DNA of 32,000 bases from Psychrobacter sp. DM4 (GTDB lineage: Bacteria; Pseudomonadota; Gammaproteobacteria; Pseudomonadales; Moraxellaceae). The stretch spans positions 2,160,001 through 2,192,000 of the forward strand of contig NZ_CP195536.1 in assembly GCF_051307035.1 (NCBI RefSeq). Direction: 5' to 3'. The notes beneath the pieces are model-generated. The model saw only the letters and a program-made list of their open reading frames with translations. It made no database searches and was not told where the DNA came from. Below are positions 141 through 26,924 of this stretch, piece by piece. Each line of letters opens with the position of its first letter. The stretch's first letter is position 1. A program made the position numbers and the translations under genes.

Positions 141-157
141 CTTAACGCCTTCTTAAC
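141..157 (+). promoter_or_regulatory. PmrA-box-like direct repeat (CTTAAC-N5-CTTAAC) upstream of eptA
   Basis: The sequence cttaac-gcctt-cttaac is a hexamer direct repeat with an 11-bp period. It matches the YTTAAK-N5-YTTAAK / HTTAAD-N5-HTTAAD site type described for PmrA (BasR). A -10-like TATGTT lies at 169-174, exactly 11 bp after the box, the same geometry as at 4119-4135. The box ends 59 bp before ATG 216. Confidence 0.6.
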
Positions 158-215
158 AAGCAGCTTGCTATGTTGTAGTGATACTCCTCGCATACTCCGG
201 TTAAGAAGTCGCGCT

Positions 216-1907
216 ATGTCATTATCTCAAACCGCTAATATCGCCGCGCCCAAAACTAACAAAGAACGTCGCTACCTCGATACACTCTATCGTTTTGAGC
301 TGAATCCAAACGCTCTTATCATTATTGTCGCGCTATTTTTGGTTGTTACCGCTAATGTCAGCTTTTTTTCGCAAGTGCTAAGCATTTATCCTTTTAGCAC
401 CAATATTGGCTTTATAGTATCTATCACAGGACTATTATTTAGTCTGATGTGGCTACTCTTTCAGTTGTTATGCTACCGACCTACTACCAAGCCCGTACTC
501 ATCACCATGGTTATGATAGGCGCCGTATGTAGTTATTTCACTGATGCTTACGGTACCGTGTTCGATACTAATATGCTGATCAACAGTATGCAAACCGATC
601 AAGCAGAAGCCATGGGGTTGATGTCGCCAAGCTTCTTTATTCGGGTGTTTTTGCTGGGTGTTATACCCGCAATTATTATTGCCACATTGAATATCAAGCG
701 CGTACCTTTACGCCGAGCATTGTGGCAAAGAGCAGTTACTCTGATTTTAGCTATTGCTTTGATAGCGTTATGTTTACTACCCTTTGGGGATCAATATGCT
801 ACTTTTTTTCGTCAGCACAAAGTCGTCCGCAGTTATGCCAATCCTATCACCCCTATCTATTCTGTTATCAAACTAGGTACTGATTATGTTGAGGAGCTAC
901 GTCGACCTGATACTTTGACCCTACATGCAACCGATGCCAAACGTAGCGCCACTATCAGTGATAAAACAAAACCTAAACTCATGGTATTTGTGGTTGGTGA
1001 AACAGTTCGCGCCGATCATGTTGGTCTCAACGGCTATGAGCGCAACACTATGCCGCTTCTAGCAAGCCAATCAGATGTATACAGCTTTAAAAACGCCACC
1101 TCTTGCGGAACTTCTACTGCTTACTCCGTTCCTTGTATGTTCAGCTACGCTAATAGAGAACATTATGACAACAACACTTCAGACTATAATGAAAATGTCC
1201 TAGACACGCTACACAAGCAAGGCGTCAATGTGGTTTGGCGCGATAATAATTCAAGCGCCAAAGGGGTGGCAGATCGAGTTACCTTTGAGGACTACAAAAC
1301 GACAGATGTCAATCCAAATTGCGATGAGGAGTGTCGTGATATTGGGATGCTTGACGGTTTTGATAAGCTAGTTAGAGCAGACTCTCCTGCTAAAGACACG
1401 CTTATTTTATTACATCAGATGGGTAATCATGGTCCTGCTTATTACAAACGTTATCCAAAGGCGTTTGAGGAATACAAACCCGTCTGTATGACTAACGAGC
1501 TCTCTAAATGTGATGATCAGTCCGTCATCAACGCTTACGACAATGCTATCCGCTATACTGATTACTTCTTAAACAACGTGATTGATACGCTAAAAAAGTA
1601 TGAGTCCGATTATGATGTCGTAATGGTATACGTAAGCGACCATGGCGAGAGCTTGGGGGAGAACAATATCTACTTGCATGGGATGCCCTACGCTATAGCG
1701 CCCGATGCGCAAAAGCAGGTTCCCGTCATCGTTTGGTCGCCTACTGGCAACGGTATCAATACTAATAACAGAGATAAAGGTAGCCTTGCCAATATGATAA
1801 ATCAGCCTGTGTCACATGACTTTATTACCCCAACTTTACTGAAATTTTTTGGTATTACTACTGAAGAAGTAGCAGCAGCACCAACCTTTTTTGAATCTGT
1901 ATACTGA
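216..1907 (+). CDS. eptA: Lipid A phosphoethanolamine transferase (EptA/PmrC, MCR-like)
   Basis: About five N-terminal TM helices precede a sulfatase-type periplasmic domain. The motifs VVGETVRADH, TSCGTSTAYSVPCMFSY, HQMGNHGPAY and YVSDHGESLGEN match my recollection of the MCR-1/EptA catalytic-domain blocks. The ORF track starts at TTG 165. I prefer ATG 216 (MSLSQT...) because TTG 165 lies inside the predicted promoter. Confidence 0.9.
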   Translation: MSLSQTANIAAPKTNKERRYLDTLYRFELNPNALIIIVALFLVVTANVSFFSQVLSIYPFSTNIGFIVSITGLLFSLMWLLFQLLCYRPTTKPVLITMVMIGAVCSYFTDAYGTVFDTNMLINSMQTDQAEAMGLMSPSFFIRVFLLGVIPAIIIATLNIKRVPLRRALWQRAVTLILAIALIALCLLPFGDQYATFFRQHKVVRSYANPITPIYSVIKLGTDYVEELRRPDTLTLHATDAKRSATISDKTKPKLMVFVVGETVRADHVGLNGYERNTMPLLASQSDVYSFKNATSCGTSTAYSVPCMFSYANREHYDNNTSDYNENVLDTLHKQGVNVVWRDNNSSAKGVADRVTFEDYKTTDVNPNCDEECRDIGMLDGFDKLVRADSPAKDTLILLHQMGNHGPAYYKRYPKAFEEYKPVCMTNELSKCDDQSVINAYDNAIRYTDYFLNNVIDTLKKYESDYDVVMVYVSDHGESLGENNIYLHGMPYAIAPDAQKQVPVIVWSPTGNGINTNNRDKGSLANMINQPVSHDFITPTLLKFFGITTEEVAAAPTFFESVY

Positions 1908-1967
1908 GATTTTGAACCCAGACGCTACGACTATTCATGCACGAGACCCCTTATGCACAAGACCCCT

Positions 1968-2672
1968 ATGTACAAAATCCTTGTCATTGAAGATAATCCT
2001 GATATCGTCGCCAATATTTATGCTTTTTTTGAGCCCAAAGGTTTTGAGCTAGATAACGCTCATAATGGCATTAGCGGCCTGACGCTCGCCTCTAATAATC
2101 GTTATGACGTTATACTATTAGATGTGATGCTGCCGGGTATGAATGGCACCACTCTCTGTAAAAAGCTTCGAGAAGAATTACATGATAAAACACCCGTACT
2201 CATGCTAACGGCTCGCGATACGATTTTGGATAAAGTATCAGGTTTTGATAGTGGTGCTGATGATTATTTGGTCAAGCCTTTTTCACTGGTTGAGTTAGAA
2301 TCCCGTATCAAGGCGCTTATACGTCGACATCAAGACGAGCATTTTGAGCATAGTATAACGGTCGGTCAGTTATCCCTAAATGCTAATGAGCACACGATTA
2401 CTAGAGAAGGTAAATCACTAAAGCTTACGCCAACAGGGTTTAAAATACTGAATACACTAATGAGTGCGACACCTCGAGTCGTCAGCAAGCATGAGCTTGA
2501 GGAAAAAGTATGGGGTGAGGATATTCCAAGTAGCGACGCATTGCGGACTCATATGCATAGCGTACGTGTACAAGTCGATAAGCCATTTGCTAGGCCTATG
2601 ATAATGACCATATCAGGCGTCGGTTATCAAATTATCAACCCAGAGCACTCTGAGCTGCACGGCGATTTATGA
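1968..2672 (+). CDS. pmrA: OmpR/PhoB-family response regulator (PmrA/BasR-like)
   Basis: The receiver domain shows MYKILVIEDN...DVILLDVMLPGMNG...LMLTA...KPF, and the C terminus is a winged helix (LTPTGFKIL...GVGYQI). The gene sits between eptA and a histidine kinase, as in Acinetobacter pmrCAB. The ORF track start is 1953; ATG 1968 gives the usual M-x-ILVIED N terminus. The symbol is inferred from context and the PmrA-type boxes. Confidence 0.85.
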   Translation: MYKILVIEDNPDIVANIYAFFEPKGFELDNAHNGISGLTLASNNRYDVILLDVMLPGMNGTTLCKKLREELHDKTPVLMLTARDTILDKVSGFDSGADDYLVKPFSLVELESRIKALIRRHQDEHFEHSITVGQLSLNANEHTITREGKSLKLTPTGFKILNTLMSATPRVVSKHELEEKVWGEDIPSSDALRTHMHSVRVQVDKPFARPMIMTISGVGYQIINPEHSELHGDL

Positions 2673-2703
2673 CTGACTTTACCCCTTTAAATAAGTAAAT
2701 ACT

Positions 2704-4068
2704 ATGTTCAATCTAGACGCTATAGCCAATAAATTTCGGCTATCCTACTTCTTGTTTGCCATACTCATATGCGTCACTTTCGTCAGTATTTTTATGTATG
2801 CTGAGGTGCGTATGGAGCGAGAACTGGTCAAAGCTCGATTATTACAACAGCTTGAGCTTAGTCAAAAAGAAAACCTTGAACAGCCTATTTATAGCGCTGA
2901 ACCTGGTATCAATATTTATCGTTATGATAATGCACCTGGTAATCTACAATTGTTAGCGACTGAAACCGTGCAAGAGATGCCAGTGACCTTCACAACTCAG
3001 GAAGGCGATATCAAAACAGAGCTACATTTTTTTCGTTATCAAAAAGACAAGCAAAACTATATTTTGACGTATTTAGAAGATGACGAGATGGTGATGGAAA
3101 ATTATCCTGTTTTGGCCATTTTTGAGCATTTAGAAGATATATTTGCCGATGCGTTGAAAGCGGCTGTGCTGCTTAGTTTACTTATCGCCGCGGTATTCTC
3201 TCAGCTGTCCTCTAGGCAGATTACTAAGCCTTTATTAGACTTGAAACAAGCGGTTGAGACCGATCATCAAAATTTAACCGAGCTGACTCATCTGCCATCA
3301 GAGGTAGGAGTATTAGCACGCGCTATTGACGATAAAAACCATAAGCTTGAGCAATACCTAAAACGCGAGCAACTATTTACAGGAGATGTTAGTCACGAAT
3401 TACGTACGCCTCTGACGATTATCATGGGCGCATCTGAAGTACTAGCGTCACAATTAGAACATGATCCTCGTTTGAGCGAATTTGCCAATCGCATCAGTCA
3501 CACGGCGAAAGAAACCTCGGAGATTATCAGTGCTTTGCTTCTACTCTCGCGCGCGCCTGAAAAACTAGATACTCCGCAAACCTCTATCAATAGCATTGCT
3601 ATAAGTGAAGTTGCGCGTCTAAAGTATTTACTGCGTCATAAGCGTGTTACTTGTATCGTAGTGGCTGAGCAAGAATACAGCGTATGCGTGCGACCTGAAC
3701 TGCTAAAGATGGCTCTTGGCAACCTCATAAAAAATGCTTTTCAGTACACGGACGAGGGCGAAGTCGTTGTTTCTATAGACGCTAAAAAAATAGTCATCAC
3801 TGATACCGGACTTGGCATTCCTGAGGATATGATGCCACTACTCTACGAAAGGTTTGAGCGTTTAGATCATAAACGTACAGGCGAGCAAACTGATAATGTA
3901 GTGTCAGACAGCTATTCTAGCTATAAGGTAGAAGGCACAGGCTTGAAGGTAGAAGGCACAGGCTTGGGTCTGAGCATTGTGCAGCGCATTATGACTCACA
4001 TGGACTGGCAGCTCACTCATCAAGCCCACGCTTCAGGGGGTAGTACCTTTAGTATTTATTATAAATGA
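2704..4068 (+). CDS. pmrB: Sensor histidine kinase (PmrB/BasS-like)
   Basis: There are two TM segments (FLFAILICVTFVSIF and AVLLSLLIAAVF). Kinase boxes present are the H-box SHELRTPL, N-box LIKNAFQY, G1 DTGLGI and G2 GTGLGLSIV. The gene starts 31 bp after the response regulator. A 21-bp in-frame tandem duplication sits at the G2 box (see findings). Confidence 0.88.
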   Translation: MFNLDAIANKFRLSYFLFAILICVTFVSIFMYAEVRMERELVKARLLQQLELSQKENLEQPIYSAEPGINIYRYDNAPGNLQLLATETVQEMPVTFTTQEGDIKTELHFFRYQKDKQNYILTYLEDDEMVMENYPVLAIFEHLEDIFADALKAAVLLSLLIAAVFSQLSSRQITKPLLDLKQAVETDHQNLTELTHLPSEVGVLARAIDDKNHKLEQYLKREQLFTGDVSHELRTPLTIIMGASEVLASQLEHDPRLSEFANRISHTAKETSEIISALLLLSRAPEKLDTPQTSINSIAISEVARLKYLLRHKRVTCIVVAEQEYSVCVRPELLKMALGNLIKNAFQYTDEGEVVVSIDAKKIVITDTGLGIPEDMMPLLYERFERLDHKRTGEQTDNVVSDSYSSYKVEGTGLKVEGTGLGLSIVQRIMTHMDWQLTHQAHASGGSTFSIYYK

Positions 4069-4118
4069 TCACTTATCTTGTCACCTGTCGCCATCATTCT
4101 CACTATCATTCCAATCCT

Positions 4119-4135
4119 CTTAACGCTTTCTTAAT
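4119..4135 (+). promoter_or_regulatory. PmrA-box-like direct repeat (CTTAAC-N5-CTTAAT) upstream of dgkA-pap2
   Basis: The sequence is cttaac-gcttt-cttaat. A good -10, TATACT, lies at 4147-4152, 11 bp after the box. ATG 4189 is about 37 bp further on. The flank atcctcttaa is shared with the box at 5536. Confidence 0.6.
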
Positions 4136-4188
4136 GCGCCCTGCTCTATACTAAAAACCTATCATATATACGCTATGAAGTCATCTAT

Positions 4189-4662
4189 ATGGACACGACC
4201 AAAGCCGTCACTTGCAATATCAGATCAATAGACACCTACTCTGAAAATAAAAAACCATCTGACACTTTGGTTGTACTCGATAGCTATGCCAGTAGTGTCA
4301 AAGGTCAAAAAGGCCTTTCTCGTATCCTCAAAGCCACAGGTTATTCTATCGATGGGTTTAGAGCCGCTTATAAATTTGAGGCGGCTTTTAGACAGGTTTT
4401 GTGGCTCAATCTTGTATTGTTCATCGTTATTGTAACCATGCCTTTTGATATCAGCACAAGCATGATGCTGATAATTGTCTCTTTTTTGTCCCTTATTGTT
4501 GAGCTATTCAATACCGCTATTGAGGCTTGCGTCGATCACACTTCAACAGATCAACATCCCCTCGCTAAAATAGCCAAAGATGTCGGCTCTGCTGCGCAGT
4601 TTTTAGCATTGTTACTGCTATTTATTTTATGGCTACTCGCCTTGTCGCCCTTTTTATTCTAA
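4189..4662 (+). CDS. dgkA: Diacylglycerol kinase (DgkA family)
   Basis: The block GLSRILKATGYSIDGFRAAYKFEAAFRQ and the motifs ELFNTAIEACVD and KDVGSAA match the E. coli DgkA pattern, and three TM helices are present. Using ATG 4189 gives about 40 extra N-terminal residues relative to classical DgkA. An internal TTG (codon L of TLVVL, near 4267) is a possible alternative start. Confidence 0.85.
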   Translation: MDTTKAVTCNIRSIDTYSENKKPSDTLVVLDSYASSVKGQKGLSRILKATGYSIDGFRAAYKFEAAFRQVLWLNLVLFIVIVTMPFDISTSMMLIIVSFLSLIVELFNTAIEACVDHTSTDQHPLAKIAKDVGSAAQFLALLLLFILWLLALSPFLF

Positions 4663-4709: not shown

Positions 4710-5540
4710 ATGACTATAGAGCGTAATTTAAAAAGGTGTCATTCGACCAATTGGGTCTGGCTCAAACTACTATGCTTGACCATTATTGCAACCTTAGTCT
4801 CTGAGCATAGTCAATTCGACATTCGTATCAGTGAGTTTTTCTATAGCAATGGTCAGTGGCTGATACAAAAGGGCGCGCAGCCTTACGCCTTTATCTTTTA
4901 CGATGGCCCTAAAGCGTTATTAATCTTGTCAGCTCTCTATTTATTAGTCATATTAGTTATCAGATACAGACAACCTTCAAATACGACCGCTATCACTGGT
5001 AACCGTAAGTTTTATAAATTGATGACTCGTCTGTCGGCTCGTGAAATAAGTTACGTACTAAGTATGCTAGTCGTAGTACCTTCTACTATTGCGCTATTAA
5101 AAGGCGTAACTCATGTAAGCTGTCCCAATCATTTAATAGCTTTTGGCGGTGATTTGCCCTATCTCAGTCTATGGCAAAACATGGTCGCAAGCACGCCAGC
5201 CAAGTGCTTCCCAGCCGCTCATGCCAGCGCAAGTTTTTCTTTATATGGGTTAGCTTTTTTGCCTGCTCTTTATGAGTATCGTTATCGAATATTTGAGATA
5301 GTGACCGTCTTAGGTTGGACAATGGGGCTCTATAAAATGCTCTTTGGCGATCATTTCTTTAGTCATACTTTAGTCTCAATGCTGCTATCACTGACGATTG
5401 CGTGTACGCTGGCTGCTATATTTTTCAAGGACAAATCTACTCATAAAGCTCTAAATAAAACATTGAGCCGTACAAAACGCTATAAAACGTCCGCTTTAAT
5501 AAAAACAATGACGCTGTCCAAAACAGACTCATCCTCTTAA
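4710..5540 (+). CDS. PAP2-superfamily membrane phosphatase (lipid phosphatase-like)
   Basis: This is a polytopic membrane protein with PAP2-like blocks: LKGVTHVSCP (KX6-CP instead of KX6RP), FPAAHAS (the PSGH position) and GDHFFSHTLVS (the C3 position). The ORF track begins at TTG 4707, with ATG at 4710. The family call is moderately confident; whether it is catalytically competent is uncertain. Confidence 0.7.
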   Translation: MTIERNLKRCHSTNWVWLKLLCLTIIATLVSEHSQFDIRISEFFYSNGQWLIQKGAQPYAFIFYDGPKALLILSALYLLVILVIRYRQPSNTTAITGNRKFYKLMTRLSAREISYVLSMLVVVPSTIALLKGVTHVSCPNHLIAFGGDLPYLSLWQNMVASTPAKCFPAAHASASFSLYGLAFLPALYEYRYRIFEIVTVLGWTMGLYKMLFGDHFFSHTLVSMLLSLTIACTLAAIFFKDKSTHKALNKTLSRTKRYKTSALIKTMTLSKTDSSS

Positions 5541-5552
5541 TACTTTCTTAAC
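5536..5552 (+). promoter_or_regulatory. PmrA-box-like direct repeat (CTTAAT-N5-CTTAAC) overlapping the pap2 stop codon
   Basis: The sequence is cttaat-acttt-cttaac, and the TAA stop of pap2 (5538-5540) lies inside the first hexamer. A further in-phase CTTAAA occurs at 5580-5585 (+33 bp). With the geometry seen at the other two boxes, the -10 position (5564-5569, TTACCT) is poor, so promoter function is uncertain. Confidence 0.45.
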
Positions 5553-5739
5553 GGCTTACAGACTTACCTCAAAATTCGCCTTAAAAGATAAGTGTGTTTT
5601 TGCCAAAAAAATACACTAAGCCATTGAAAAACAATGTATAAATAGACAATAATTAGTTGAAGCAGCTAGAAAATAGCTATCGTGTCAGCTCAAGTCATCA
5701 AGGATGAGTGACTCGTTTTGTGAGTTTGATAAGGATATT

Positions 5740-26154: not shown

Positions 26155-26924
26155 AATGCTTCTTCCTTGAGGTATATGGAGTCGATATAGTTGATAAATG
26201 TCTATAGCCAGCAGTTTTAAACCAAAAAATAATGACGTCTTTATTACTCAAAATATTTTGCTTAAAAATACATATAGGCTGCAAATAAATTAATAGTCTG
26301 TAAGTGATTCTATTTGAATATAACAAAAAATCAACAACTTTATTCATATATCAATCAATTGTAATTTTTTATGTGTTTTTTTTAAATCTGGGTGAATAGC
26401 ATATATCCCTACTTAAGAGCAACTTAATAGATTCATAATAATTTTATGTATATATACTTAAACGAATATTAATATCTAATATTATAGATATAAGAATAAA
26501 TATATTTATTTTTTGATATATAACTTTTGACTTTATTTTTTACTACTATTACGACGCCCCTTTTAAGTAGCAGATGGTAATGCCTCTCACGCTGACTTTG
26601 CTAAGTTAATGGCGTCACTACCGTTGCTAGCGCAGTCCTAGGGTTCATCTGACATCAAGATAATACCGATATCTTTTATAACGACTTTTTAGGACATAAA
26701 TAAATAAGTCATATATCGTTTTATATTATTGATATATTCATTTTATTAAATATAGAGAGTAATAGAGAAGTTTTTTGAAGGCACAAGTAGCATTAGCCTT
26801 ATAGAATAAGACTAGGAAGGGAGATTAATTAGGAAGAGTGTTTTGGTCGCGGCGGAATAATAGAATTTTTAAACCAGCTTGTATCTGATAAATAAATGCC
26901 AAGCTATTGATGATTATAGAATAA
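26155..26924 (-). promoter_or_regulatory. 770-bp extremely AT-rich upstream region of the TAA gene
   Basis: No credible ORF is present. By my count 26401-26520 has 18 G+C in 120 nt. The region contains many A/T tracts (T8 at 26376-26383) and AT palindromes. It must contain the TAA promoter, but I could not pin down -35/-10 elements. Confidence 0.6.
26412..26428 (+). promoter_or_regulatory. PmrA-box-like direct repeat (CTTAAG-N5-CTTAAT) in the TAA upstream region
   Basis: The sequence is cttaag-agcaa-cttaat. It has the same plus-strand orientation as the other three boxes, which is inverted relative to the TAA gene. It lies 258-274 bp upstream of the TAA ATG. A degenerate copy, cttaaa-cgaat-attaat, lies at 26457-26473. 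Confidence 0.35.

Follow-up and report, generated by a model that had tools for sequence, protein, structure and literature searches.

A TTAA-core direct repeat upstream of eptA and dgkA marks a predicted lipid A modification regulon in Psychrobacter

The DNA examined is a stretch of 32,000 nucleotides (positions 2160001-2192000, hereafter the window) of a 2.88-Mb Psychrobacter genome. Five genes lie on the plus strand in its first 5.5 kb: eptA, a response regulator gene, a sensor kinase gene, dgkA and pap2. This work concerns two hexamer repeats, boxes 1 and 2, that precede eptA and dgkA, respectively, and that are predicted to be sites of the regulator encoded between them. A third repeat, box 3, is found at the end of pap2. 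The features are listed below in window coordinates, with the family models matched by the gene products.

141-157, plus strand: box 1, CTTAAC-GCCTT-CTTAAC (CTTAACGCCTTCTTAAC), predicted regulator site of the eptA promoter
169-174, plus strand: -10-like hexamer TATGTT, 11-bp gap from box 1, predicted transcription start at ~181
216-1907, plus strand: eptA, phosphoethanolamine--lipid A transferase (NF028537, 750 bits)
1953-2672, plus strand: response regulator of the OmpR/PhoB family (PF00072 and PF00486)
2704-4068, plus strand: PmrB-like sensor histidine kinase (histidine kinase family matches)
4119-4135, plus strand: box 2, CTTAAC-GCTTT-CTTAAT (CTTAACGCTTTCTTAAT), predicted regulator site of the dgkA-pap2 promoter
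4147-4152, plus strand: -10-like hexamer TATACT, 11-bp gap from box 2, predicted transcription start at ~4159
4189-4662, plus strand: dgkA, diacylglycerol kinase (PF01219, 95.5 bits)
4710-5540, plus strand: pap2, PAP2-family lipid A phosphatase (NF028538, 355.7 bits, cut-off 275)
5536-5552, plus strand: box 3, CTTAAT-ACTTT-CTTAAC (CTTAATACTTTCTTAAC), overlapping the pap2 stop codon, position weight matrix (PWM) score 19.8 bits, third in the genome

Boxes 1 and 2 are direct repeats of two hexamers, each with a TTAA core, with a 5-bp spacer and a period of 11 bp. The sixth base is C in three of the four hexamers. The sequences and coordinates of the boxes and of the -10-like hexamers, as given in the original prediction of a PmrA-type regulon, proved exact on re-reading, and the identical 11-bp distance from box to -10 hexamer was confirmed at both promoters. 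No -35-containing sigma-70 promoter was called at box 1 or box 2. With the -10 hexamer set at -12 to -7, the box would occupy about -40 to -24 and so take the position of the -35 element, of which neither promoter shows a recognisable example; this layout is that of class II promoters under OmpR/PhoB activators. When the DNA upstream of eptA was aligned locally with that upstream of dgkA, the best match consisted of the box and a short flank (CAATC..CTTAACGC.TTCTTAA), with a score of 17 (shuffled sequences averaged 9.3 and reached 15 at most); the remainder is unlike. No terminator was predicted from the end of the kinase gene to box 2, and read-through from the kinase operon may therefore add to dgkA-pap2 expression.

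Conservation was examined in 28 Psychrobacter loci in which the start of eptA is present (73-81% identity to the gene studied here), and which share with the window the pmrCAB-type gene order of eptA, regulator and kinase. All 28 have a box upstream of eptA. The box is an exact CTTAA-N6-CTTAA, 58-150 bp before the gene, in 27 of them, and the 28th carries TTTAAC-ATCTT-CTTAAC. One locus (L018 5847-5874) has three in-phase CTTAAC hexamers (CTTAAC-ACCTT-CTTAAC-GCCTT-CTTAAC) before eptA. A box is also found just upstream of dgkA or pap2 in the 17 of 17 eptA loci that contain either gene, and upstream of dgkA in 11 of 11 further loci retrieved by a genus-wide DNA search, bringing the total for dgkA/pap2 to 28/28. 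The box is kept where dgkA and the kinase gene are about 2 kb apart (L001, L003, L006-L009), and where dgkA is missing it directly precedes pap2 (L017).

When 49 distinct sites were anchored on the box, the spacer (GCCTT, GTCTT, ACCTT, ATTTT, ACATT and others) and the flanks were variable. A TAnnnT hexamer follows after exactly 11 bp, its T, A and T being kept in 42, 46 and 47 of the 49 sites, respectively, and in relatives TATACT occurs at this offset in the dgkA promoters. As a working motif, we use tCTTAAC-rynTT-CTTAAY, 11 bp, TAnnnT. The invariance of CTTAA in the 49 sites is partly by construction, because the sites were found by a pattern search; the independent signals of conservation are the presence rate (28/28) and the spacing to the -10 hexamer.

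A PWM built solely from the sites of relatives gave scores of 37.3 bits to box 1, 34.8 bits to box 2 and 19.8 bits to box 3 in this genome, where all other positions scored at most 11.5 bits. Expected numbers of matches were derived from 20 first-order Markov genomes. The pattern CTTAAC-N5-CTTAAY occurs three times genome-wide (1.3 expected), and the box followed by TAnnnT occurs twice (0.35 expected, with a maximum of two in the simulations). The excess is local: three sites are present inside 5.5 kb, where the simulated genome-wide rate gives about 0.02. The third genomic match to CTTAAC-N5-CTTAAY (C1:239329) was rejected as a candidate: it falls inside the reading frame of an opposite-strand ispE-like gene, and no downstream gene follows within 3.8 kb; about one chance match to this pattern is expected per genome.

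Matches to CTTAAC-N5-CTTAAY were further counted in 148 genomes of the genus. Those with a close ortholog of the kinase (110 genomes) have a mean of 3.26 matches, with at least two in 104, and those without it (38 genomes) have a mean of 1.16, with at least two in 12, an association that lends support without amounting to a statistical test, since related genomes are non-independent. The reversed pattern, used as a control, gave a mean of 0.45 matches over all 148 genomes. One genome (G118) has three kinase matches and 11 boxes. Among the matches listed from three genomes lacking the kinase (G008, G046, G086), none has TT before the second hexamer.

Taken together, it is likely that boxes 1 and 2 are binding sites for a dimer of the regulator encoded at 1953-2672, which would activate its own operon and dgkA-pap2 as a class II activator. 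The kinase (2704-4068) would phosphorylate the regulator, and the phosphorylated protein would bind head-to-tail to the two CTTAAC/CTTAAY hexamers, one helical turn apart. From the position of the missing -35 element, it would recruit RNA polymerase. A single signal would thereby raise the expression of eptA and of the regulator and kinase genes, a positive autoregulation, and the same signal would raise dgkA and pap2 from their separate promoter. Phosphoethanolamine transfer frees diacylglycerol, which is recycled by DgkA, and in E. coli three genes, eptA, dgkA and ybjG (of the PAP2 family), are under positive PmrAB control (PMC7559476). DgkA would here recycle the diacylglycerol freed when lipid A receives phosphoethanolamine, and pap2 would provide a lipid A phosphatase. 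In this scheme, we infer the identity of the binding protein, activation rather than repression, the transcription starts and the inducing signal. The autoregulation and co-regulation put forward originally are thus backed by comparison, through the conserved repeat, the fixed -10 spacing and the kinase association; the classification of the regulator as PmrA is not supported by its sequence.

Besides the limits given above for the CTTAA invariance and the kinase association, several results weigh against the regulator-activated reading. The boxes had been said to have the architecture described by the consensus YTTAAK of Enterobacteria and HTTAAD of Acinetobacter. Neither box matches either literal pattern, because of the C at the sixth base: the sole match to YTTAAK-N5-YTTAAK in the window is at 26412, and HTTAAD-N5-HTTAAD matches only at 26412 and 26457. 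Four double hexamers, all intergenic, had also been reported. The number four is obtained with the relaxed pattern CTTAA-N6-CTTAA only (141, 4119, 5536 and 26412, with 0.07 expected from window shuffles), and the site at 5536 is not fully intergenic since it overlaps the pap2 stop codon. A whole-genome scan for enrichment had been proposed as a check. It was run on both strands with the relaxed pattern and gave no signal, with 8 matches when 11.75 +/- 2.9 were expected. Genome-wide enrichment was accordingly rejected as support. With the bare motif at chance density, the evidence is therefore the local clustering and the conservation. Where a regulon comprises just two or three promoters, enrichment over the genome is not informative, and conservation is the working test.

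The relationship of the regulator to PmrA belongs to the same side of the balance. Its score with the PmrA (BasR) model NF007928 is 168.7 bits, for a cut-off of 330. The heavy-metal, PhoB and MtrA models score slightly above the PmrA model, all below their own cut-offs (175.6 bits for PhoB, cut-off 296.2). The best matches in the PDB include the Klebsiella and E. coli PmrA/BasR structures, and likewise DrrD and MtrA. The regulator is 33-35% identical to the eptA-adjacent regulator of an Acinetobacter-like genus, and thus no nearer to that counterpart than to its seven OmpR-family paralogs in the same genome (28-36%). In Klebsiella PmrA, the bases TAA are read by T187, N188, V192 and H195 (PMC10570014). 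The aligned residues are here S, D, T and H, so that only H195 is identical. Membership of PmrA, as originally assigned, cannot be claimed from the sequence. As the regulator scores below the cut-off of the family, the label "PmrA-like" refers to synteny and site architecture.

It is conceivable, although unlikely, that the regulator represents a separate lineage of the OmpR family, about one third identical to Klebsiella and Acinetobacter PmrA, which would use TTAA-core repeats placed ~3 bp further upstream (~-40 to -24) than the enterobacterial box. Klebsiella PmrA has been observed to shift position inside the transcription activation complex (PMC10570014). The predicted position of the Psychrobacter box is near that of the PhoB site and near the shifted position of Klebsiella PmrA. 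If a separate lineage were indeed at work, the shifted state would have a natural counterpart in the Psychrobacter promoters, which could be used to test whether the shift is needed for activation.

Other explanations of the boxes were weighed against activation by the adjacent regulator. The boxes could be real and bound by another protein, either one of the other OmpR-family regulators or an unrelated factor, the adjacency of the regulator gene being a coincidence. The genome does encode seven such paralogs, the adjacent regulator is unassignable to PmrA by sequence, and a dozen of the 38 genomes that lack a close ortholog of the kinase have two or more pattern matches all the same. This is nonetheless quite improbable, as the box precedes the operon of the regulator itself in all 28 loci, and the number of boxes follows the presence of the kinase ortholog, with 11 boxes where there are three kinase matches; the matches listed from the kinase-less genomes moreover lack the TT before the second hexamer. 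That the adjacent regulator binds the boxes but mainly represses, in a negative autoregulation with transcription from an unrecognised promoter, is very improbable. A site over the -35 region can also occlude RNA polymerase, but there is no recognisable -35 element to occlude at either promoter, the constant gap of 11 bp before the -10 hexamer in the 49 sites fits a face-specific contact with the polymerase, and the known PmrA and PhoB promoters of this layout are activated (PMC10570014).

That the boxes have no function, being chance matches or neutral remnants of shared descent, is hardly credible. The chance density of the bare pattern over the genome would agree with it, and some conservation is expected since the compared loci are homologous. 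Flanks and spacer have diverged, however, with both hexamers and the -10 spacing kept; the DNA upstream of eptA has nothing else in common with that upstream of dgkA; rearrangements have not parted the box from dgkA or pap2; boxes of the same geometry precede other genes in relatives (see below); and the three sites in 5.5 kb far exceed the ~0.02 expected. A promoter for an extracytoplasmic function (ECF) sigma factor was also considered and rejected, since a direct repeat with TAnnnT at 11 bp is unlike the AAC-type -35 element with 16-17 bp spacing generally known for these factors.

The two remaining sites of the window differ in standing. Box 3 shares with box 2 the flank ATCCT. It is not followed by a proper -10 hexamer, the sequences found being TTACCT at 11 bp and TACCTC at 12 bp, and an ordinary sigma-70-like promoter is present at 5624-5653, about 70 bp downstream. 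The interval between pap2 and the triheme cytochrome gene that contains box 3 measures 163 bp (5541-5703), compared with ~900 bp in relatives. In L067, the only relative read there (1714-2652), the interval holds a YceI-like gene. A box at this position is absent in 11 of 11 further relatives (L067-L077). In view of this absence and of the lack of a proper -10, box 3 was rejected as a conserved promoter. The local clustering of sites argues against pure chance, and box 3 may be a strain-specific extra binding site, doubtful as a promoter. The fourth double hexamer, at 26412, did not hold as a meaningful site: it scores 2.6 bits, has no spacer TT and no -10 hexamer, and faces no gene in the AT-rich DNA between two minus-strand genes. 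It looks like a chance match. A very AT-rich intergenic region of 770 bp (26155-26924), upstream of the gene of a 3479-residue adhesin, contains both 26412 and 26457, and base composition most likely accounts for the two.

In other Psychrobacter genomes, boxes of the same geometry precede genes for a DUF347 membrane protein, a DedA/VTT-domain protein and cytochrome b561-like proteins (L005 3103, 9259; L019 11079; L023 10286; L024 1800; L025 11709, 13256; L026 4465; L029 11694, 13229). The regulon is therefore larger in these relatives than in the genome studied here, from which the DUF347 gene is missing. P. glaciei has a perfect box before its DedA/VTT-domain gene. Before the DedA gene of the present genome there is a weak site (C1:902441, 7.7 bits), in an upstream region that could not be aligned with that of the P. 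glaciei box, and it is regarded as a weak candidate.

In some relatives, the box and -10 hexamer are followed by a conserved leader of ~80 nt (GATACCCAAGTGCTAACCAGTGCCCTCCTACACTGGGATCATTAC...) upstream of dgkA, pap2 or a cytochrome b561-like gene (L003 6834-6950; L005 11415; L008 12014; L012 10039; L017 9992; L025 13256; L029 13229). The leader was rejected as a known RNA, having no Rfam match and a fold z-score of -0.5, which is not significant. It is absent from the present genome.

Two of the gene products call for comment. The next-best models for the eptA product are MCR-2, MCR-6 and MCR-1, at 570-587 bits, all below cut-off. The protein is 49-50% identical to MCR-1 and MCR-2, its nearest families being MCR-1/2/6, and relatives align from residue 1 of the product starting at ATG-216. 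The kinase gene contains at 3925-3966 a perfect in-frame tandem duplication of 21 bp, giving KVEGTGL-KVEGTGL at the G2 (GTGLGL) box. These seven additional residues are strain-specific, being missing from the four relatives compared. In this strain, the duplication could alter the kinase/phosphatase activity and, through it, the state of regulon expression.

The PmrA box, autoregulation and the control of dgkA and a PAP2 gene by PmrAB are established in enterobacteria (PMC10570014, PMC7559476), and the PmrA box is established in Acinetobacter as well (PMC10927774, PMC9431647). No description of this lipid A modification regulon in Psychrobacter was found in the literature. Judging from the sequence comparisons, the locus most likely follows the known PmrA logic in an undescribed Psychrobacter variant, whose hexamer is particular to the genus (C at the sixth base) and whose box has a slightly different position. 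This provides a concrete and testable lipid A modification regulon for Psychrobacter, and the motif with its 11-bp distance to TAnnnT can be used to annotate the regulon across the genus.

Among the closest known arrangements is pmrCAB of A. baumannii, which belongs to the same family and has the same order of transferase, regulator and kinase, the operon being preceded by two TTAA-core hexamers with a 5-bp spacer (PMC9431647, PMC10927774). Gel-shift experiments have shown binding of A. baumannii PmrA to TTTAAG-N5-TTTAAG (PMC10927774), and the consensus of the Acinetobacter box is HTTAAD-N5-HTTAAD (PMC9431647), which the Psychrobacter hexamers CTTAAC/CTTAAY fail at position 6. The orientation relative to known boxes is ambiguous, because TTAA is palindromic and the complementary strand of the Psychrobacter hexamer reads GTTAAG. 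The Acinetobacter-like genus of our sample has TTTAAG-TCTTT-TTTAAG before the eptA, regulator and kinase genes. The regulators and transferases are 33-35% and 36-37% identical to those of Psychrobacter, respectively, and the gap to the -10-like hexamer appears shorter (~8-9 bp, by eye in single sequences). There, pap2 is divergent, with a TTAA-N7-TTAA about 300 bp before it, whereas in Psychrobacter dgkA-pap2 is predicted to be an added direct target. In other genera of the family, eptA is directly followed by pap2, with no adjacent two-component system (L080-L082, L084, L093). A conserved TTAAG-N5-GTTAAG (e.g., CTTAAG-GTTCA-GTTAAG) is found in these ~100 bp before eptA (L080-L082 ~1309-1337; L084 1315; L093 1395); the second of its hexamers corresponds to the Psychrobacter CTTAAC in reverse complement.

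The enterobacterial PmrA/BasR boxes are likewise direct repeats of two TTAA-core hexamers, 5 bp apart; they overlap or replace the -35 element (PMC10570014), as is predicted for Psychrobacter. In these bacteria eptA-pmrAB is autoregulated, and in E. coli dgkA and the PAP2-family gene ybjG are under positive control of PmrAB (PMC7559476), both as predicted here. The Psychrobacter system differs in that the literal YTTAAK does not apply, the regulator scores below the cut-off of the PmrA family model, the key base-reading residue N188 is replaced by Asp (PMC10570014), and no arn or ugd targets were seen. Compared with the Klebsiella pbgP box, the Psychrobacter box would lie ~3 bp further upstream (~-40 to -24, by arithmetic from PMC10570014). 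It would nearly coincide in this respect with the PhoB pho-box of class II promoters, another direct repeat, which takes the place of the -35 element at -41 to -25 (PMC10570014). The pho-box has another hexamer sequence, however, the regulator scores below the PhoB cut-off, and the targets concern lipid A modification instead of phosphate genes.

A last parallel is with the mobile cassettes mcr-1-pap2 and mcr-3-dgkA, in that a transferase of the MCR-1/2/6 type is linked to pap2 or dgkA (PMC10285318). No TTAA-N7-TTAA box was found upstream of the transferase gene in the plasmid-borne mcr-1-pap2 (L078 1240-1500) and mcr-2 (L079 1300-1500) sequences, and its occurrence in mobile mcr-1 and mcr-2 cassettes was rejected for those examined. 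This agrees with the report that most mcr families lack a dedicated regulator (PMC10285318). Unlike the cassettes, the Psychrobacter genes are chromosomal, linked to a two-component system and preceded by separate box promoters. The accessory genes dgkA and pap2, which travel with mcr, thus appear to be wired in the Psychrobacter chromosome to the signal of the transferase.

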